64,000 nucleotides of DNA from Cyanidioschyzon merolae (Eukaryota): assembly GCA_000091205.1 (NCBI GenBank), contig AP006483.2. One strand, 5' to 3'. The notes under the pieces were generated by a model. It saw only the letters and a program-made list of their open reading frames with translations, was not told the DNA's origin and ran no database searches. Shown here in pieces: positions 1 through 48,020 of this stretch (its first letter is position 1; each line of letters begins with the position of its first letter). Position numbers and translations under genes: made by a program.

Positions 1-45
1 TTGTTGTTGTTGTCGTAGCAGCAGCAGCAGCAGCGCCGCTCGCCT
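1..45. repeat. Compound trinucleotide microsatellite (TTG)n followed by (CAG)n at the window edge
   Basis: Direct reading: ttgttgttgttgtcgtagcagcagcagcagcagc. Confidence 0.8.
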
Positions 46-663
46 AGTCCACGTATTCCGATAAAGTCAACGCTTCGCAACTCTACCCTGCGCCCGTGCG
101 TAACCGGGTTGCTGCAGCAACAGCGGCAGCAACAACTGGCAATGCCACGCGCTCGAACGTGGCGAGGCAGTTCTGTTCCCGATGAAACGTATGAGCGACA
201 CACACTGCTATACTGGAAAGTTGCGTTTATGTCGCAGCCGTGCGTTGGTCCTCGGAATGCCGTCGTAGGCGACGCCCTCAGACAACACTCGGGACGATGT
301 CGTACGAACCAGTGAACAGCACTGCTCGATGCTGAGACAACGACTGATTCGGAACAGTACGTCTATCGCATGCGCTGTGTGGAACGGGTAACTGGAATCT
401 CCAGTTGGAGTGCGCTTCTCTGTGTGTCATCGCTTTGGAAGTTTTGGGAACAAGGCTCTATGCATGCCTCTCCCTGGACATTTTTTCGACGCACAGGTGC
501 TTTCGATACCCGACACACTACTGTGGAGCACGTTAGTCGCATCCTCAGGGCTCGGGGCCGCACATGTGAACGTGCCCAGGTCGCTTGCCACTCCTACGGG
601 TTGCATCGTTCCTCTGCTTGCCAGTCAGAAGAAGTAGCCTTCGCTCGGCTGGGTCAACTTGAA

Positions 664-3360
664 TCACCAGTGCGTACCGCTCTGCGCTGACTTGTCGACT
701 GCCCCAGGCATCGACGTGGCTGACGAGTGCGTCTGGAGCAGTTTGAGCGCTTGACGTGGCTTCTCCTCAGGTGCACCCCGGTTACATTCGAACGTCTCGG
801 AACGCAGCGCATGCGTCGGCAGAGAGTCCGACACTGGTTGCACCCGACGGTAGAGGAGCAGCTCGTGCAGCGGAGCCTCCTCGGTTATGACGCACGGGCC
901 GAGCCAAACGGTGTCTCGGTTGTTGATGTCGACGTTGTCAGGGGATAACGAGCTTTTCAAAGTCGAGCACGCCGAGTCGATTCGCCAACGACACCAGTAA
1001 CCGGTCGGTAAGTAGACGCTTCGTCGACGCTGACCATAGGCGAGGACGGGTGCCACCAGCAGGTCTGTACCGATGAGGTATTCGTCGTCAACGCGGCTCG
1101 CGACTCCACTTAGCGGATGATCCGCGGTAAGGCGCTCATCCCAGCAGACAGGACGCACGATAGGCTCATCGTTCTGGAGTAGCGTGAGCAGGAGCGGAAC
1201 GATGGACGTTTCGCGAAAACGCAGGTATCTCCGAACGAGGTCGACGACGGTTTCAGAGAGTTCCGGATGAGGTGGTAGCAAGCGATCGAATAGTTGCGGC
1301 TGCAGAGAGAACTGCACACAAGGCATGGCGATGCTGGCTTGCAACCATCGAATATAGAGCTCTCGCAGCTGAGCGGGATCAGTCTCCAGAGCGACCTCAT
1401 CTGCATTACCATAAGCGTTTCCACCAATCATGTCGGGCATCACGACTTGGACGCCCAGTACGCTGACGGTCAAGGCGCCTGTGACGACACTCTTCAGGCC
1501 GTTATCGGTGCCCCATTTAGAGGATTTGTCGAAAAGGCGAACCACGACGGGCGCGAAGAGGCTATCAAACCAGGAGGTACGCACCTCCGCAATAGGGAAA
1601 CTTGAAGCCATGGCAACGTACTGACGCGTGTACTCGTTCTGCTGGAGTACTGCATCTGCGTCCAAGGCATCGCAGCGGAGAAGAGCGCTTGGGACAAAGG
1701 CACCTTCGCCGGCGTCGAACTTGAAGCCGTCGATTCCAGTTTCGTGTTGGAGTTGGCGGAGCTTGGACTGCCACCAATCCCGCGCTTCCGGTTTAAAGAC
1801 ATTGAGTAAATGACCCTGGCCTTGCCACCATTCTACTGGCCGTTTACCGTGGCCGAGAAGGAAGCCGCGGTCTCGAGCTTCGGCAAAGTTGGTACTCTCC
1901 TCGGTGATAAATGGCGGGATCCAGAGCGTTACGAGAAAGCCGCGGGCATGCAGGGCATCGACCAGTTGTCGCGGTTCCGGGAACTTGTTCGGATCGAAGC
2001 TTGTATCGCCGTAGTTTCGCTGCCACTTATCGTCTATCTCAATGATACCGCCCTGCAGGTCGAGCGAACGTAAGTTATCCGCCATAAGCATGACCTTGGT
2101 CGCGGTGACGTCGGCTTTCATTTCGGCCCAGGTAGACCAGATCACGCGCTCGATGAGGGCAGTGCTCTTCCAGGAGCGCTGCGGTGCGCCAAACCAGCGA
2201 CGCAAATGAGAAAACGTCTGGTCCAGTCTTGGTTCTGCTGCAATGAGCAGCTCAAGTTCTAGACGCTTTGCTCGCGCGGACCAAGCACAGAGCCGCTGGT
2301 CACCGCGAGTCGTGCCAGGCTGCTGCACGGGCGGGCACTGACGATGCGGTCGCTGGCGGCTGCGTCTCGTCTCGGCGTCCAGTACGGATGAATAGATCGG
2401 TATATAGACGTCCGTGGTGAACTTTTCATGGGGTATCGCCGGCTCCACCTGGGCATTCGACGAGACGTGTAAATCAAATGGAGGGTGCGGCATCACAACC
2501 GCTACCCCGGTTGAGGACAGGAGCACGGGAGAGAGCACCGAACCGACTCCACTGGGTGCATTGTCCCAGGTCACAAATGGGGTCGGCGGTAGCATTGCGT
2601 CCGACAGAGGCCACGTCTGATTTAGGAACTCACCTAGGCCGTACACCACCTTACCCTTAGGCTCGTTGAGCACATACGACCAACCGAGCAGTGACAATGG
2701 TTTCCCAGCACCTGCAGCCTGTTTTCCTGGTTCAGTACGCTCGGCTGTGAGACAAACGCGACAATCTTGACGGTCGCAATGCACTGCAATGGTAACCTCA
2801 ACAACGTCATCGGGGTCGGCTGCGTCGTGGTAGCGCAGACGAACACCAGCAGCTCTCGTTCTTTCGTTACATACGACCTCATTGCCGCCCTCGAACGCCA
2901 GTATTTTACGCTCAAATCTAGAGTTTCCGTCCTCCAAGCCCCAGAGCAACGAGCCGGTAGCGCAGAGCGCACCGTCTCGATATATATGGTACGTTGCAAG
3001 CGCCACCGTCACGCGTACAAGCAACTCGCGCGGCTCGTGCCGCAAAATGTACCACTCACCCGCACGCTCGGTAACTTTGAAATAGTTGCCTTCATATACC
3101 TCTTCTTTGACTTGAGTTTGCAGTACATTGGACTGTACCGCACGCGACAGCAGTGCGGCAGCGCCCACAGCGGAACTCAGTGTCCGGGCAAGCACGGTGC
3201 CGCCTGCAAACGCAGCTGCAACGTTCGCAGCTAACACGTCCGAGTTTCTCGGCAGCGACCCGCAATGCTCTAGTTTCTGAGCGTCGCCCTCCTGAAGTTT
3301 TTGGAAATCCTTGCTCAAAGCGTGCGCAAACACTGGTATCGAACGTGATACACCTTTCAT
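664..3360 (-). CDS. Glycoside hydrolase family 31 protein (alpha-glucosidase / MYORG-like), 898 aa
   Basis: Long ATG-initiated ORF. GH31-type catalytic region 'GIDGFKFDAGE', and 'IEIDDKWQ' and 'WIPPF' segments typical of GH31 barrels. Stop is TGA. Confidence 0.7.
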   Translation of the reverse strand: MKGVSRSIPVFAHALSKDFQKLQEGDAQKLEHCGSLPRNSDVLAANVAAAFAGGTVLARTLSSAVGAAALLSRAVQSNVLQTQVKEEVYEGNYFKVTERAGEWYILRHEPRELLVRVTVALATYHIYRDGALCATGSLLWGLEDGNSRFERKILAFEGGNEVVCNERTRAAGVRLRYHDAADPDDVVEVTIAVHCDRQDCRVCLTAERTEPGKQAAGAGKPLSLLGWSYVLNEPKGKVVYGLGEFLNQTWPLSDAMLPPTPFVTWDNAPSGVGSVLSPVLLSSTGVAVVMPHPPFDLHVSSNAQVEPAIPHEKFTTDVYIPIYSSVLDAETRRSRQRPHRQCPPVQQPGTTRGDQRLCAWSARAKRLELELLIAAEPRLDQTFSHLRRWFGAPQRSWKSTALIERVIWSTWAEMKADVTATKVMLMADNLRSLDLQGGIIEIDDKWQRNYGDTSFDPNKFPEPRQLVDALHARGFLVTLWIPPFITEESTNFAEARDRGFLLGHGKRPVEWWQGQGHLLNVFKPEARDWWQSKLRQLQHETGIDGFKFDAGEGAFVPSALLRCDALDADAVLQQNEYTRQYVAMASSFPIAEVRTSWFDSLFAPVVVRLFDKSSKWGTDNGLKSVVTGALTVSVLGVQVVMPDMIGGNAYGNADEVALETDPAQLRELYIRWLQASIAMPCVQFSLQPQLFDRLLPPHPELSETVVDLVRRYLRFRETSIVPLLLTLLQNDEPIVRPVCWDERLTADHPLSGVASRVDDEYLIGTDLLVAPVLAYGQRRRSVYLPTGYWCRWRIDSACSTLKSSLSPDNVDINNRDTVWLGPCVITEEAPLHELLLYRRVQPVSDSLPTHALRSETFECNRGAPEEKPRQALKLLQTHSSATSMPGAVDKSAQSGTHW

Positions 3361-7451: not shown

Positions 7452-10400
7452 AGCTAGTTTGGATCGCTCGGTAGACGCTCTTCTATCGAATGATGGAATA
7501 CTCCATGATTTTGGGCCAGTTGCTCAGGAAACGCCTAGTCGGTGTATGGATGCGGCGCTGGAGCCTTTCTTGTACGCTGAAACGTACCATACCGAGGCAT
7601 TGCCTGTGGCAAGCGTTCGATTCCACCTCTGCTGGCCGCTGCTATTTTTCCAACGGGATTCTGAGGTCACGTAGCACATTGCCCGCCCAGAGTACGAAGC
7701 GACGGTCTCGAAAGTTTGCTCTACAAAACGCTGCTCGACGCCCCGAATCCATGAGATACTTTTGAATGATGATCGAAGCGTTCAAGTCGGGGTGCAGAGC
7801 ATGCCAGCGCGCATCGTTGCTGGTGGAATCATACCGCACAGAGCCTCTGAACTTCGATTGTCTCGCCAACTGACGTTTGTTCCGTCGACCGTAAACTGTC
7901 TCGTGGACCCGTCTCTGTTTCATTGTTGTCTTCTCTGTGTGCCCCAGCATACATCCCGTGCTCGTGATACCTGTAGGTTATCCAGGACGCATCCAGGGGA
8001 ATCGTGCACAACCGATTCTTGCTATCGTTGGTCGCTCTCAGCCAGCAAGCAGGAGTGCACTTGCTGCGTGGACCAGGATGTATAGCGCAACGCGCGACTA
8101 GAAACCGACGTGACTTTTCGGCCAGTTGCTTTTTTTTAACGTACTGAATAAGTTGGTAGAGGCGCGCTTCCCGCCTCCGTTCATCCGAAATCGTTGGCGA
8201 TCGAAAGCGTGGTCTCGTGGATGCCTGCCAGGGATCCAGTGCATGAGCCATTGACAGGCTCATGGACTCTATTTGAGAAAAGTGTACAGTGCAGCTCGCT
8301 CTGCTCCGTATGTCGCTCAGAGCGTCGATACGGGTCCAGACGTCTTCACTAGACTTTTTGGTATGCCATCTGGTGTCTGTCGGGCCTGCTGCTCAATTGT
8401 ATCGAGCCCGGGAAGCGTCGAGTGGCCCCAGCTGCTCTCGGTTCACCTCTTTGACGCCGTCGTTTGGATTTGGAGGTACAGCGACGGAGAGGACGTTGTC
8501 CAGCCTGCGATCGAGTCCCATTGCAACGCGCTTATCTTCGATGAATTTGAACGGTTGAAAATGGGTATCGTTACGCGTCTAAGGTTGAGGGTTTCGCGCT
8601 CCTCATGAGGTGTATACTTATTGATATTCTCTCGCTCTTCATATTCCCTGCAAACTGCTTTCCATATTCTCCCTGGGAACAAGAAAATATGAATGTGCTC
8701 CGCCAATGCACTTCCAGAAGTTTAATGAATGCTCCTTGCAGTAAAGCATGATGTGCGGCGATGGAACGGGCCTTGAAAGGATCTCTGGAATAAAATCGAA
8801 GTCAAGCTTGATGAGGATCGGGCGCTCGGACTCGGGAATGCGTCTGCTTTGGCTATGGAGGGCTCTTCTTTAGATCTCTTTGCAATGTACGGCGCAAGGT
8901 GGGCGTCATGTTCCGAGCATCCTTTGGATATGACGCATCTCTCTGTGTGCGAGGCGGGACCGTACACTATGAGCTTGGACGAGGTGAGTCGACTCTCGCT
9001 CTGGTCGCAGCATGTGTTCAGAACTCGCTACCATCCCGAGCGCTTCTGGCACCACCAGCTCGACACTTGCCTCCGTCGACGCACCGCAAGTGCCTTGCAT
9101 CAGAGCCCACATTTTCGGACCAGGATTCTGAGGGTTCGAAGCTCACAGGATGCATCTCGTGAAGCGCTCGAGACTGAACCGCAATTAAGATCGGATGTTG
9201 AGGTTCGTTTGATACGTTTTCACAACGGCGTTGTAGATATACCGATCGACGACGTTTTGTGAAGACGCATCAGGTTTATTTGGGGAAAGCGTGTCCACAA
9301 AAACGCGGATCCTACGACCAAGCGCCTCTGCAGCTCCAGTACTGCGAAGCGGTTGTGTTGCCGCACTAGGGTTGAATCGAAAAATTTCAAAGGAATGTCG
9401 ACAGCGGGCAGCCCGGTTCCCCAAACTGAAAGGAACAGTTGCTTGATGAGGTCCGTCAACGCGACGGAGGCTAGAGAGGACTTGCTCGGGACGGAGGAGG
9501 AAGCGGCTTCGTCGATAGTTGTGTCGTGCATCTCCATTTTCGTGCACATTCTGTCTGTTGGGATGGTTTACTGCGGCGATCTTGGCCAACCTTCCTCACC
9601 GATGTATATCCGCTCTGACAGTTTCCTCTTCTTGGTTCACCTCGTCATGTATTCCGAACGATTTCTGGCTTGATTGTCCGTTTTTTTCTCGTAGTTCTTC
9701 TCTGGCATCTCCTGGACTCGGTGGGATGACATGCATGTGGGCGCGATACCCCATATCCACTTGTTCTTCGGGATTCAGACGTATTGGGTGAATGTTTGGA
9801 ACGCAGCTTGCTTTCTCCGTTGATGCGCGTACGGGTTTTCACCAAAACATTCTCGTCATCTTCAACGTCAAGAATACACCCATAGACCGAAGCATGCATC
9901 TCCGCTCCCTCGCAGGCGCGAGCAAAGAAGCAACAGCATCTTTCAGAGCAGGTGGAGTTCGAGCAAAACCCGCCAAACAACCTCGATGTCTCAAATGCGA
10001 ACGAATTTTCTATGGATCCCTGAGCGTACAACCGGCTTTTGACGATAGAAAAGGCTCGTTGGAATGAAGTCGACCCAGGGCGACAGGCTGATTCGAAGGC
10101 CAGCTCAACGCCAATGCCAGCTGCGAGCTCCTTGAAAGATTTCGAGTCGTGCAGAGAGATGCTGTCGAAGAGCAGGAAGTACGTAAACAGTACTCTGTCA
10201 CGAAGAATGCTTTGATCAAGGATGAGGCGCTGAAAGATGCTGTCTGTTCGGTGGTTCACTGGCGAATACACCACTGAATCGCCATCAGGGCGGTTGGTGT
10301 CGTGATTCTCGCTTGCCGCTTCCTTACGAACAGTTATTTGTTCGAGCTGAGAGCCCACATACAGGTCTAGACCGTTTCCGCCGAATCAGGTCTCATCGAG

Positions 10401-37008: not shown

Positions 37009-38738
37009 CGTTTCGGAGAGTACTGGTCAGCGTCTGCACGCGTATGTTTCCGCAAAAGCGCAGCCCAGTGCTCGCCAGGGGTCGCAGCGGCAGGGACGGG
37101 CCGGGCGCGGCGGCGACGGCGGCGATCGCGGCGATCGCCACCACATCATTACGCTTTATATATCAATTTACGAGAGCAAATCCCAAGACGTACGGGACCC
37201 AAGGATCGAAACCTCGTCTCGCTAGGAGCGGATGCGGCCTTCGGCGGCGGCGGCGGCGGCAACGATACACCACCGTCAGAGGCAGGCACCGTCTCAAAAG
37301 CGAGATGGCGCAGCGGAAGCGTGATGGGCTCATAACCCATAGGTCCGACCGAACGCTCTTTTGCCACTCGCCTCGCTCCAGAATACATCGCTTCCCCATA
37401 TCTGCCCTAGCGTCGACGCATCTCGGGGGCGTTTCCCATGTACAGGACCATGGGCACCGTCCAGGCGAGATCGACTGCAGCACCACACCAGGCAGGAGAC
37501 GTCGTGCGACGTTCCCCGAGATGCCGCGCACCAAGCACCGCTTCGGGATTCAGGCGCAGCAAGCCTGGGCGTGCATCGACCACACCGATCGATGCTGCCG
37601 GAGACCGTCGGGCATCCCCGATAAGCACTCGAACCCGGCGCACGAAACGGACAATCAGTGAAGCTATGCGCGTTCATCCGCAACTGCGCACCGATGACGG
37701 TGTTCACGAAGCGTCGCACAGCGGGTGCCAGCGCCATATATTCCCATTGCTGCCGCCGAGCAGCGCATCATCCACGGCCGGTATCTGCGTACCAGACGGC
37801 ATCGTCGGGAGCGCCCGCGGCTTCAGCGCTTTTGGGCGACGGCAGCACACATGCGCACAGCGACACAGTACGCATCCCATGCGTCTACCTGGATGTGATC
37901 GGATGCACCTGTGCCGCTGATGCCCAGCGAAGCGATCTCACGTGCTCTACATGCATGGGAACGTTGGGCTAGTTTCTGCTCTGCATTTCCCAGATGCGAA
38001 TGAGGCTTGAAGAATCGAGCGGGTCTGCAGGTGCCGAGCCTCACATGAGCGGTCACTGCAACGCATGCCATGTCGCCACAGTCGCGCAACAGAGACAGGC
38101 CGAGCGCACCGCACACCCCTGCATGGGCATGGGTTCAAAGCGCGTCTGCTGAGGGGCACGCTGTTGCGGCTGCTGGGGCTTCTCTACCTCGCCCGGCAAC
38201 CGGGGCATGCCAAGTGCGCGCCCTGACGACACACCCGGTCCGAAGTACCCGCGATAGCGATGCAAGCGCACGCTGATTCTCGAGAACAAATACGCATCAT
38301 CGTTCGGCGTTGATGGGCGCGAAAACCTCCACCATTCCGCTGGCTGCCGCAGCGGCAGACTGTAAGCGCGGATTCGTAACCAGCACCCGGGCCTTGTCAT
38401 TGCCGTGGTCGATCTAGACACGCGAGGAGCACAACCCGACCAGGAGCGAGTACGGAGCAGGCAGTGCTGTTGCGTTTATCGCTCGCGAAACGAGTATTGC
38501 TGTGGAAGACGCAAATGCGCTCGAAGCGCGCCGCTGTTGCAAACACCTACACATCAATACACAAATATGCTGAAGGAAGCTTCGCAGGAAAGCTGCTTTT
38601 TAACGACGCGCACCACGCGGTATGCATATCTCGTCGAAAAAAAGCGCCCGATATGAATGTACCAATCCGCTCATCAGGCCTGAATAACCATGAACTTTAC
38701 ACGGGGATACGGCTGCACCGATTCATCGTCCTAAACCG

Positions 38739-44281: not shown

Positions 44282-44852
44282 CCGGTTCGCAAGCCTTGCA
44301 CGCTCCACTGAAAGCAACCTTGTCCGCGCCACGACAAGCTCACCCGCTTTTCCACCTGCAATAAGTGCACTGGAGCTCCTCAGGAAGCTCAGGTTCCTGG
44401 AATTTTACTCGTACAAACGAGTTTCTTACGATCCGCGTTGACTCGTTCCGTTGGCGTCGCACGAGCACTAGTGCCAGCTCGCAAAGCAAAACACCCCTGA
44501 CCGGAATGACGACACTCGGGCGCCACTGGCCTGTCTCCAGCAAGCTTCGCAAGAAGCCACTGACCACAGACTGATAAAGTGCGTTAACGAAAACTTACCT
44601 CGACGGAAGCAGGCACCGCTAAGGGAGTAAAGAGCGCGTTCCTCCGAGCTACAAAGGCAGCTCACTGGTGTCGACGTCGAAACCCGTACAAAAACTCCAG
44701 TATCTAACCAGTAGGTTCTGCAACTGCTTCCCTGCGCACAAGTCGGCGCGATAGAGCACGCCACACCGATCGCCTGCTTATCGATGCACCGACGTGCACA
44801 AGTCTCCCAGTCTTTTTGACCGGCTCCCTGTTACCGGTTTCAACTTGTTCTT

Positions 44853-45509
44853 CTACGTTTCTACCTTGAGAGGCTGACCGACAAAGTTGTCTCTCGTCAG
44901 TTCCAGGAGTCTCTTCTCCAGCACGGCATAGCTCTTTATATTGATAGAAGCACTAAAGTCTCGGTTCACGCACTCCAGGCGTTTCTCGTCGCCGCTTGTA
45001 CTCACCAGTGCAGGGAGTCCTCGAACCTGTGCCCTGCTTTCCATTTCCTGCCCTTCCGTCACCGCTCCGTACTTTTGGATATCCCCAGGGCTCCTTTGGC
45101 ACTTTTCCATCTCAACCCTCTGAAGTGTACACCCTAGCTCGTGATGAATGGATGACGTTCCGAACGCATTTATCAGTATCGAAACGAAAAGGTGTGCGCA
45201 GTCCTTGTACGCTCGTGTCGACGGAGCTGGTATACAACCTTTTGTGGACGCCCAGCGTCCTGATCCGTATGCTAATACGAGCATTTTACGCTTGTCCTCC
45301 TTGAGGGCCCTCAACTCATTGAAGAACTTGTCAAATGCACGCTGCTTTCCTCTGTGCAGACGCATATGCAGACGAGCCCATCTGGTCTTGGTGTACTGTT
45401 GCCACAGCGCCTCCCAATGAGCAGTACAAACTTTCATGAATTCCAGAAAAGCCTCAAAGTCCGCTCCTCGGCTAGTCACCTCGCTCAAAGCTTCCAGGTG
45501 CTCTTTCAC
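44853..45509 (-). CDS. C-terminal exon/fragment of the TnpB/Fanzor-like nuclease (RuvC-III 'NRDFSASINI', Cys-rich zinc-finger-like region)
   Basis: See the mobile_element entry. The frame is closed 3 codons upstream by a TAG that I read as the AG end of a candidate intron. Confidence 0.45.
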   Translation of the reverse strand: MKEHLEALSEVTSRGADFEAFLEFMKVCTAHWEALWQQYTKTRWARLHMRLHRGKQRAFDKFFNELRALKEDKRKMLVLAYGSGRWASTKGCIPAPSTRAYKDCAHLFVSILINAFGTSSIHHELGCTLQRVEMEKCQRSPGDIQKYGAVTEGQEMESRAQVRGLPALVSTSGDEKRLECVNRDFSASINIKSYAVLEKRLLELTRDNFVGQPLKVET

Positions 45510-45585
45510 TCCTCGATTCTATTCCTTAATTTTTTCCTCGCGTTCATTTTTCCGGATTCTCGATCGTATCTTGCTCTCGAGAAAT

Positions 45586-46056
45586 TTAAAAGACACATGT
45601 CTTCTGACGTAAGCTGCCGTCAGTGCCATCTTCCGCACGCTTGGGTGCTGCGATGGTCATGATATTCGTGTCCCCAGGGTCCGCGCCAACGACATTGTCG
45701 TTCTCCTGGACCTCCTGCATCACAGGATCCGCCTCGTATATATGTTCATGTTTCGTCGCGGGCGAAGCCGGGGACGGAACTGGACGATCTACCTTCAAGC
45801 ACTTATAATCTACAAATATGGCTACTCCATCACTTTTGATCATCCCAGGGAATAACTTTTGCTTGCTCACTTTGAGGCGTTCGAAATCGAACATATTCTT
45901 CCAGTACGTCTCCCGGTTTTCACCGGAGAACTCGAAATTCCTTACATCGAACTCTGGACTGATCTCCTTCATGATGCCATGAAGGACGCTCGAGTCGATT
46001 GCCACAATATCTGACTTGACGGTGCACAACGGAGCGACATGGAAGCGCTTACCCAT
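45586..46056 (-). CDS. Central exon/fragment of the TnpB/Fanzor-like nuclease carrying the RuvC-I motif (GADPGDTN)
   Basis: See the mobile_element entry. Its reading frame is also open for >40 codons upstream of the listed start, overlapping ORF 46056-46286 in another frame. Confidence 0.45.
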
Positions 46057-47042
46057 TAGGGCAGCCTCCCGTCTCTCCGACTCTTCATTTTTTCCCCACT
46101 CAGCTTCATCTCTGCCTTGCGTTCGAGTTCTCGGTCCAAAAACACAAAATACCGTAGAATGAGGCGATAGTATCTTTCCGTATCCTTTTTCAACTCTGAT
46201 ATCTTTTCTACTGGATTCGCTAGCCCCAGTACCGCACGACGCTCTTGAATAGACGCACGGATTCCAGAAGCTTCATTCCTTCTCATGTGTGATGTCTTCT
46301 TGTCTACGGATTCGATCCTCTGTTCATTCTCCCTATCGTTCGTGATGCCATCGATGGTGACCCATCTCGCCCTGTGAGGCAGGGCCGCCTATAATGCAAA
46401 CGCGGTGCGTATCATGAAACGTTCGAGGTTCATAGTCATATCGCTCATCAGGTACGTGGGGTACTTCATCGCTCCGTAGGTGCGAATTCGCCAGTCTCCC
46501 CTCTATCGAGTACCGTTGAGGCGGTATTCGGCGTACTTTTTGTGCAGTATACACACTCGCGCATTTTTCGTCGACATATCCCAGGTGCTTACCATCCGGT
46601 AGCGTATAACGGTCTCGTTGAAAAATTCCTCCGGAACCTCGACTTTTTTGGTGTCCGTCACGTTGTTGTATATCTCTTTTACCAAATGCACTAGTACTGG
46701 AAAAGCCTTTACAATACTCAAGGAGTACGACTCGACACGGTTTCCGATGGCCTCTCGCAACTTCTGCTTGTACGGATCCTTGATACATCCAAGAAAACGA
46801 GCTTTCACTACCATCTCGTCGTACTGTCGTCTTTGATGCAGGCATAGACGTCTGGGATCCTGTCTCAGCTTCTTGGACGTGTCTTGTTCCTCTTTGCTCG
46901 GCACTGTTCTCCGTTTTCTTCCGGCAGCCGGTGACACCAGGCCTCCAGGATCCTCTACTTCCTTCTCCACAACTTGCCTTTTTTCTATAATTTTAGATTG
47001 AATGCTCTTTGAACGCCTCTGCTGTAAACAGTGTAAAATCAC
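46056..47042 (-). pseudogene. N-terminal region of the TnpB/Fanzor-like gene: one reading frame running 47042 to ~46056, interrupted by two in-frame TAG codons (~46503 and ~46400), then a +/-1 frame change into the RuvC-I exon
   Basis: Hand translation shows ORFs 46503-47042 and 46056-46286 share a frame. The sequence between them ('RGDWRIRTYGAMKYPTYLMSDMTMNLERFMIRTAFAL*AALPHRARWVTIDGITNDRENEQRIESVDKKTSH') is protein-like apart from the two TAGs. These could be unspliced introns or decay. Confidence 0.35.
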
Positions 47043-48020
47043 TTGAATTCACTAACTTGAGGGTCGAAGCATAAGTGAACTGAAAACTATACTTTGTTAT
47101 GACTTGAATGTAAATACAAGTTGTGCGTTAGACACCAAGTCAACGAATGATCAGGATCGCATATCCCTTCAATGCCGAGATGCTCGTCGCGTCTGATGCC
47201 TCCAAGATGCGGAAATGCGCTAACCGACCGGACTATATAGAGCAAAGAACAGAAACGAACCATTAAATAGCAACGAGATGGCAATTTCTTTCCCCTCTAC
47301 GGTAAACGTTAGAAAATGGCAAACGCTTTCCGTATAATCGAATGTCTACAGGTGGCATGTCCCGCGTGCCGGACGAGTCTGCAGGGCTAATGCTTCGTGC
47401 TCGCCCCAGTGGCAGATGCTTTATTGAGACCTGCGCAACTCGTCCGAAACGCTGCTTATTCTGGGACTAGGAGCGGCTAGCTTGCATCTGGGCATCGCGC
47501 TTGTCTCAGCGGACTCCTCGTGTATTCCTTCGCGCTGCCGCATGCAGTAGATCTGTCTGAACAGATTCCAAGCCCCCAGAATAATAATGAATCGCGACCC
47601 GGTATCGCGCTAGCCACGCCTCGAGCCAACGTCATCACTCGCATGGTAAAAACGATCTATCTCCGTGATGCTTGTGCTCCAGCGGCATAGGCGCTCCTGC
47701 AGGTACAGCACGACAGGCACTCGGCGCTCGATCGAACGCACAAAACGAATTGTATATCCGAAAAGAAGTATAGGTCATGCAACTTGGAGAAAGGATGCAG
47801 CAGCACGATGTACGCCTCCTCGAAAGCCAATATCCATCCAATCCGCAACCTGAAATCCAAGGTCAACGGACACTTTTCAGCCATCGACAGAATTCCCGCT
47901 GCGCTACGCCGCGCGTACCCGCAGGCTGCGCGCAGGCGCCCCGTTTCCAATCGATTCGAGCGTTTTCAAACGCAGTGCTCCGTATAGGCACGAGTTCCAG
48001 CGCCAAAAGTGCGTGATAGA

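Follow-up and report, generated by a model that had tools for sequence, protein, structure and literature searches.

What is the AT-rich island that separates a WD40-repeat gene from CKS1 on chromosome 1 of the red alga Cyanidioschyzon merolae 10D, and does it hold a working gene for a eukaryotic RNA-guided nuclease or the remains of one? An initial annotation of the 64,000-nucleotide stretch of this chromosome that we analyzed (hereafter the window) had taken the island to be an insertion coding for a TnpB/Fanzor-like RuvC nuclease. We find that positions 44788–47886 of the window (minus strand) are almost certainly an old, fixed and inactivated insertion of the transposable element (TE) CMe-1A, the intact form of which encodes a Fanzor1-clade protein of the TnpB/Cas12 superfamily. 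Both the element, with its consensus, and the Fanzor1 protein had already been published in 2013 (Bao and Jurka, 2013, Mob DNA 4:12, PMC3627910).

That paper is the one that defined the Fanzor proteins, and CMe-1A is the sole Fanzor1 family that it lists for C. merolae. The family has a consensus of 3169 bp, to which each of its approximately 150 copies is about 80% identical, and some individual copies keep intact open reading frames (ORFs) despite the age of the family. A single exon encodes CMe-1, a protein of 734 amino acids that was classed as Fanzor1 by the authors who defined Fanzor1. The 5′ 635 bp are 95% identical to a separate repeat, TE-N2_CMe, of about 70 copies. CMe-1A was described as having no terminal inverted repeats (TIRs), and its target-site duplication (TSD) and class were left open (PMC3627910).

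We compared the window with the CMe-1A consensus sequence in supplementary file 2 of Bao and Jurka (2013). With blastn, window positions 47877–44788 (minus strand) matched consensus positions 9–3092 with 81.5% identity over 3106 columns, or 97% of the length. A global alignment placed consensus position 1 at 47886 and was collinear over consensus 1–3092, leaving a decayed but near full-length copy (1–3092 of 3169) at 44788–47886. Under the rule that members of a TE family share at least 80% identity over at least 80% of their length, the window copy belongs to CMe-1A. The order of its modules on the minus strand is also that of CMe-1A, with a TE-N2-like 5′ part, a leader and a single-exon Fanzor1 ORF. 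The non-coding 5′ module corresponding to TE-N2_CMe occupies 47245–47886 (consensus 1–635; 80.3% identity to the consensus). It is followed by the leader that runs to the Fanzor start codon at 46971–47244 (consensus 636–905; 79.9% identity) and by the CMe-1 pseudogene at 44788–46970 (ORF positions 906–3092), which compared codon by codon has 70% amino acid identity to the 734-amino-acid consensus. A hidden Markov model (HMM) of the family matched all pseudogene fragments in collinear order. The island had originally been drawn at 44800–47350. It is real, and its right edge is at 47886; about 530 bp of 5′ non-coding sequence were left out because the TE-N2-like module was not recognized.

The identity of the element leads to the question of whether CMe-1 is in fact a Fanzor1 protein. 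The likeness to TnpB and Fanzor might be a matter of short motifs matching by chance, with GxDPGxxN coming from some other fold, for example that of an Hsp70/actin-type ATPase. This would be consistent with the absence of Pfam OrfB_IS605 and OrfB_Zn_ribbon from the window ORFs and their close relatives, and with the result that a narrow profile of close relatives alone matched no sequence in the PDB, Fanzors included. An exhaustive HMMER search with the narrow profile found 1465 relatives (E≤1e-3), many of them 600–700 amino acids long. From 41 of these together with the CMe-1 family we made a broad profile of 45 sequences (alignment A2), and this profile matched three solved Fanzor1 proteins in the PDB: those of Parasitella parasitica (PpFz, 9CF0; E=1e-19), Spizellomyces punctatus (SpuFz, 8GKH; E=7.3e-12) and Guillardia theta (GtFz, 9CER; E=8e-6). 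In the HMM check proposed in the initial annotation, OrfB_IS605 was not significantly matched, and Fanzor1 was matched through the broad profile.

Structure prediction, which had been proposed as well, was carried out on P0386, a near-intact family member of 752 amino acids, rather than on the broken window copy. The AlphaFold2 model of P0386 had a mean predicted local distance difference test score (pLDDT) of 82.6 and a predicted template modeling score (pTM) of 0.79. When the model was compared with the PDB using Foldseek, the top seven matches were all Fanzor1 chains (E=6.6e-16 to 3.8e-13). The match to SpuFz (E=6.6e-16) extended over the full length with a template modeling (TM) score of 0.71–0.73, the target-normalized value reaching 0.73. 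After Fanzor1 came Cas12 variants, Fanzor2 and Cas12f at E values of about 1e-2. These matches, together with the 81.5% DNA identity to a published Fanzor1 element, make an explanation by chance motifs vanishingly improbable. In addition, no Hsp70, actin or sugar-kinase family of Pfam was matched at E≤1 and no such fold was among the Foldseek matches, so that the ATPase scenario, which the initial annotation had itself named as a way to be wrong, finds no support. Together, profile homology, the fold of the P0386 model and the assignment by the original authors support the idea that the CMe-1 family is Fanzor1, and the proposal of a TnpB/Fanzor-like RuvC nuclease was correct.

The family does not carry the marks of a prokaryotic TnpB. 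OrfB_IS605 and OrfB_Zn_ribbon (Cas12f1-like_TNB) were not matched above threshold in the window ORFs or close relatives, and no TnpA is found beside the element. Pfam PF07282 appeared in two distant relatives, below threshold in both (E about 1e-3). For some relatives a precomputed assignment to PF26935/DUF8286 exists; we found no paper that mentions PF26935/DUF8286.

We next consider the catalytic site. Three residues do not vary among the 45 members and relatives that we aligned, namely Asp in DPG, Gly in VVAYG and Glu in DEFRT, and the RD of NRDxNAA is nearly invariant. The two segments that the initial annotation had relied on are where it placed them, RuvC-I at 45649–45693 and VNRDFSASINI at 44937–44969, and in the family consensus 237 codons separate them. 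Within the first, the motif GADPGD (45670–45687, minus strand) keeps the catalytic Asp that is invariant in all 45 sequences. The second, RuvC-III (minus strand), also keeps its catalytic Asp; its R and D are the nearly invariant pair. Between them, LVLAYGSG (45258–45281, minus strand) has the invariant Gly, which by its place in the alignment appears to match the canonical RuvC-II position, with Gly for Glu. In Fanzors the canonical RuvC-II Glu is replaced by Pro or Gly and an alternative downstream Glu is used; in ApmFNuc, the E467A mutation showed that this Glu is essential (Jiang et al., 2023). Judged by alignment, the Glu of DEFRT is probably this alternative catalytic Glu. The family consensus thus has the rearranged RuvC-II of Fanzors (Gly in VVAYG, Glu in VDEFRTS). 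The window copy does not, since the codon-wise comparison shows that VDEFRTS has become INAFGTS (45153–45173, minus strand), in which the Glu is changed to Ala. The window copy is a Fanzor1 member by descent and is catalytically dead.

A second feature of this region concerns the family as a whole. A C4 zinc finger between [TS][TS] and RD is part of the Fanzor/TnpB motif (PMC3627910). As the initial annotation had noted, no canonical CxxC...CxxC zinc finger can be seen here, and this is true of both the window copy and the intact consensus. In codon-wise comparison, the segment of the window copy at the zinc-ribbon or target nucleic acid-binding (TNB) position is HHELGCTLQRVEMEKCQ (45096–45146, minus strand) and has no CxxC...CxxC. 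The same region of the intact consensus reads DEFRTSYTHHELGCTLQRVEMEKCQ...RGLLALV...FVNRD, also without CxxC...CxxC and with only two Cys and two His in the order HH...C...C. Of the 22 clade members in which a pattern search located the two flanking motifs, one has the first CxxC and two have the second pair. The segment itself is present in CMe-1 and aligns to the same region of SpuFz and PpFz, which have Cys4. We regard the missing Cys4 as a variant trait of the CMe-1 clade and not as a reason to exclude it from Fanzor1.

Just before RuvC-I lies a 75-bp tandem repeat that encodes 25 acidic amino acids (KHE[DE]xKEAxPxxQEVQDNDxVV) and varies between copies from one to about five units; the window copy has one. 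In the P0386 model this repeat falls in the sole long stretch with pLDDT<50, residues 388–469, a disordered linker.

Can the window copy still be a gene? If the locus were a live or domesticated Fanzor gene from which the host still made an RNA-guided nuclease, the breaks in its coding sequence would have to be explained by introns, by programmed frameshifts or by errors in sequencing. The Asp motifs of RuvC-I and of RuvC-III that are still in place are in line with this, as are the intact ORFs of some CMe-1A copies (Bao and Jurka, 2013) and the fixation of the insertion in all sampled populations. The coding content is divided over four minus-strand ORFs (46503–47042, 46056–46286, 45586–46056 and 44853–45509), exactly as first described. 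Three-frame translation gives a single protein-like reading split across frames, and tblastn with relatives switches frame at about 46090, 45605 and 45530.

Alignment with the consensus showed what the breaks are (all on the minus strand). The start codon is lost by a change of ATG to GTG at 46968–46970. Premature stops are found at consensus Tyr156 (46503–46505), which is the end of ORF 46503–47042, and, in the codon-wise comparison, at Tyr194 (46389–46391), amino acid 485 (45519–45521) and amino acid 707 (44853–44855), the last being 28 codons before the consensus stop. Deletions of 1 bp shift the frame at 46096–46097 (consensus nucleotide 1780), 45603–45604 (2274) and 45533–45534 (2345), where both the alignment and the change of tblastn frame mark them, and a further 1-bp deletion was seen in the alignment at 44818–44819 (3061). 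No intron-like sequence is inserted between the ORF fragments relative to the single-exon consensus. The initial annotation had expected that introns would need to be corrected for; instead, nonsense substitutions and 1-bp deletions account for the breaks.

The pattern of substitution points the same way. Divergence from the consensus is 16.9, 13.4 and 20.1% at codon positions 1, 2 and 3, compared with about 20% in the non-coding parts, and G>A and C>T changes (176) exceed A>G and T>C changes (120). Near-even differences across codon positions and an excess of G>A and C>T are the hallmark of neutral decay. In the window copy the final ~77 nt of CMe-1A could not be detected; the local alignment was matched or beaten by 211 of 300 shuffles and a motif search for the CMe-1A 3′ terminus found nothing in place. 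Compared with the consensus, then, the window copy is without a start codon, its coding sequence is interrupted by four premature stops and thrown out of frame by four 1-bp deletions, Ala stands in for the relocated Glu, and no last ~77 nt are recognizable. With these lesions, it cannot make a nuclease.

Sequences from the environment bear on both the fixation of the insertion and the nature of the lesions. Ten hot-spring metagenome contigs carry an identical CKS1 protein (L083–L092). Nine of these orthologous contigs are 99.0–99.7% identical to the window from the WD40 gene to a Tim17-like gene and have the same insertion with the same broken ORFs. The tenth, L091, ceases to follow the window sequence once within the element: identity is 73.5% over its ORF part and falls to about 50% further left, probably as the result of an assembly jump from one repeat copy to another. 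No empty pre-insertion site was found among the ten. Because nine of ten contigs share insertion and lesions, the insertion is fixed and the lesions are not assembly errors. Identical lesions in independent metagenome assemblies therefore argue against a live gene, as do the loss of the start codon and of the invariant catalytic Glu, the nearly equal divergence at all codon positions, and breaks that are 1-bp deletions and point nonsense changes without any intron-like insert.

Protein databases add to this. The joined conceptual protein had 159 close relatives, all derived from metagenomes, and the homologues listed in both protein searches came from JGI, ENA, MetaClust and Logan sources and none from NCBI or UniRef. 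Because no NCBI or UniRef protein is among the listed homologues, the region is evidently unannotated in the reference genome; that no annotated C. merolae protein is among these homologues also counts against a live gene. We thus regard a live or domesticated gene as very improbable. The initial annotation had called the locus possibly domesticated or decaying. Decay is what we observe, and domestication does not agree with the stops, the deletions and the lost Glu.

The dead DNA could still have been put to use, as promoter or insulator DNA for the CKS1–WD40 gene pair. Co-option of this sort is compatible with an inactivated CMe-1A insertion, and we consider it unlikely. It is suggested by position, in that the element fills 3.1 of the 3.85 kb of intergenic DNA, and the element is kept in nine of the ten orthologous environmental contigs. 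However, retention among genomes that are about 99% identical is uninformative on selection, and among the environmental contigs the identity of the TE ORF part (99.0–99.4%) is no higher than that of the flanking intergenic DNA (99.0–99.7%).

As originally proposed, the island is AT-rich and lies between a WD40 gene and CKS1: its GC content of 0.496 (whole window, 0.566; each flank, 0.58) is the lowest among 610 sliding 3.1-kb windows of the 64-kb sequence. Values inside the island range over 0.45–0.51 and those in the flanks over 0.58–0.62. The fall in GC of this copy arises because the CMe-1A consensus (0.523) is already below the host (0.566), to which GC-to-AT-biased decay is added. A sharp contrast of this kind might also suggest a unique and recent horizontal transfer, for instance of a viral fragment, given that Fanzors occur in large DNA viruses (PMC3627910). 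This is extremely unlikely. CMe-1A is a family of about 150 copies in the C. merolae genome with 345 stretches in metagenomes, the window copy is 18.5% off the consensus and heavily mutated, and no viral genes are adjacent to it.

Nine ORFs of the window are identical to annotated C. merolae 10D proteins (BAM78804–BAM78822). With these matches we dropped trypanosomatid and oomycete hosts, which composition and the scarcity of introns in the ORFs had brought into consideration. The right neighbor of the island is CKS1, a cyclin-dependent kinase subunit (BAM78817), and the left neighbor is an ORF for a WD40-repeat protein of 1146 amino acids, for which an exact sequence look-up gave no match. 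The two genes are divergent, and the element is upstream of both, its 5′ end at a distance of 135 bp from the CKS1 start codon and its 3′ end at about 620 bp from the WD40 gene. In agreement with the initial annotation, we found no TIRs, TSD or transposase partner: the inverted or direct matches found were short and none was at the element ends, and no ORF within the element or next to it codes for a transposase. Over the element, Rfam with a permissive threshold gave only a small RNA match at chance level. The TE-N2-like 5′ module contains a 15-nt inverted repeat at 47364–47452, 87% complementary with a 59-nt spacer, and its arms are by eye complementary in the CMe-1A consensus too. Elsewhere in the window, an Rfam match to tRNA at 37299–37366 (plus strand; 29.6 bits against a gathering threshold of 29, E=0.042) was not confirmed by ARAGORN, and we rejected it.

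To describe the family beyond this one copy, we used hot-spring metagenome contigs, in which tblastn confirmed 345 stretches of the family. Some samples with family copies (Ga0078972 and Ga0080006) also hold the orthologous WD40–CKS1 locus at about 99% identity. We surveyed element ends and modules in 80 further copies from metagenome contigs. About a third of these are long and start at consensus 1–6. The remainder are short, start at about consensus 640–690 and lack the TE-N2 module; the sequences upstream of them are of at least three kinds, including a TE-N2 5′ end in inverted orientation. Fanzor core and TE-N2 module thus appear to be separable, and the published 3169-bp consensus appears to be a composite of two units.

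In the other copies, sequence is also conserved on the outer side of both published ends. Most long copies have a T-run (GATTTTTTC) before position 1 and full copies have TTTGTTG after position 3169. At the 3′ end there is a terminal hairpin in one of two versions, GUUUUUC-UUUU-GAAAGGC or GUUCGA-CUU-UCGAAC. Its mean minimum free energy was −6.8 kcal/mol compared with −2.45 kcal/mol for shuffles, and z was below −1.5 in 44 of 68 copies. RNAalifold on the 68 3′ ends returned no consensus structure. The Fanzor core starts with a visible 5′ hairpin motif, which was no more stable than shuffled sequence. The 3′ terminal ~77 nt that are not recognizable in the window copy can form hairpins in these other copies.

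The window also holds a second and much older Fanzor1-like relic at 7645–9567 (minus strand). Three collinear fragments match the Fanzor1 profile, at 9223–9567 (profile 63–104; E=7e-8), 8574–8801 (profile 296–348; E=5e-9) and 7645–7977 (profile 542–612; E=3.5e-7), with E values that are uncorrected for the number of fragments searched. With the relative P0007 as query, tblastn found the relic at 7955–8542 (E=3.5e-11). It is about 23–25% identical to the CMe-1 protein and has no blastn match to the CMe-1A consensus.

How CMe-1A compares with known systems depends on whether the protein or the element is considered. SpuFz1 (8GKH, 9CEU–9CEZ), a structurally and biochemically characterized Fanzor1 of WED/REC/RuvC architecture, has the same whole-protein fold as the P0386 model, and the motifs GxDPG, DE[FY][RK]TS and NRDxxxxN align, although the identity to CMe-1 is only about 15%. 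SpuFz1 has a CxxC...CxxxxC zinc ribbon and CMe-1 does not; conversely, CMe-1 carries the variable 25-amino-acid acidic tandem repeat in the linker that precedes RuvC-I. The SPu-1 element has TIRs (33 bp) and TSDs (TA), and CMe-1A has neither. Prokaryotic TnpB of IS200/IS605 and IS607 elements, such as ISDra2 TnpB, belongs to the same superfamily, has a RuvC D...E...D triad and uses an omega RNA that comes from its element's 3′ end. By contrast with TnpB, CMe-1 has its canonical RuvC-II Glu replaced and the catalytic Glu relocated, as in Fanzors, lacks the Cys4 zinc ribbon and a TnpA partner, and is about twice as long.

At the level of the element, there is a likeness to CRe-1/2/3 of Chlamydomonas reinhardtii, which are non-autonomous Helitron2 elements. 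Like CMe-1A, they are Fanzor1-only and have no TIRs, a 3′-terminal hairpin and heterogeneous 5′ regions. Helitron-1N1_CRe and Helitron-1N2_CRe, which are related to CRe-1/2/3, insert after TTTT (Bao and Jurka, 2013), and full CMe-1A copies, with a T-run before them and a hairpin at the end, resemble the TTTT target and hairpin of the Chlamydomonas Helitron2 elements. On the other side of this comparison, neither asymmetric terminal inverted repeats (ATIRs) nor a 5′ hairpin was established for CMe-1A, and no RepHel partner was demonstrated, no search for RepHel having been made. The Helitron2 likeness is a lead and not a classification. It is conceivable, although we think it rather doubtful, that CMe-1 and its relatives from a thermoacidophilic red alga and from metagenomes form a distinct Fanzor1 sub-type without Cys4, the elements being hairpin-bounded and inserted at T-runs in a Helitron2- or IS200/605-like manner.

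What would an intact CMe-1A do? Fanzors are RNA-guided and take their guide RNA from the 3′ end of the element, and the structure of SpuFz with omega RNA and DNA is known (8GKH; Jiang et al., 2023). By homology with SpuFz1 and other characterized Fanzors, intact CMe-1 may form a complex with a non-coding omega RNA that is transcribed at the 3′ end of its element. The 3′ guide portion of this RNA would direct recognition of DNA next to a short target-adjacent motif (TAM), and cleavage would be carried out by a single RuvC site, to which GxDPG and NRDxNAAxNI each contribute their Asp and DEFRTS the relocated Glu. By the same homology, the role of CMe-1 is probably in maintenance or spread of the element rather than in catalyzing transposition.

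Several observations weigh against parts of the interpretation given here, that the island is a dead CMe-1A insertion from a Fanzor1 family. Neither the window ORFs nor their close and intact relatives gave a significant match when scanned with Pfam. Two hand-specified hairpins after the stop codon were 80% pairable and showed no covariation beyond shuffles, and no cleavage was detected for the Chlamydomonas Fanzor1 CrFNuc-1 (Jiang et al., 2023). The family is without a Cys4 zinc ribbon, so that even intact copies could differ in function. Lastly, environmental relatives that are about 99% identical cannot separate neutral decay from constraint.

Together, these data indicate that two short motifs, read from raw sequence, sufficed to recognize a eukaryotic TnpB-like nuclease correctly. 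To what was on record for CMe-1A they add the exact boundaries and lesions of the window copy and the fixation of this insertion in environmental C. merolae populations. For the family, they describe a CMe-1 clade without a canonical zinc ribbon, with modular 5′ ends and with a 3′ terminal hairpin, features that could guide nuclease tests of intact CMe-1 from a thermoacidophile. If the clade is indeed a distinct sub-type and its intact copies are active, it would provide a eukaryotic RNA-guided nuclease that lacks a zinc ribbon, a prospect that concerns the family rather than the dead copy beside CKS1.

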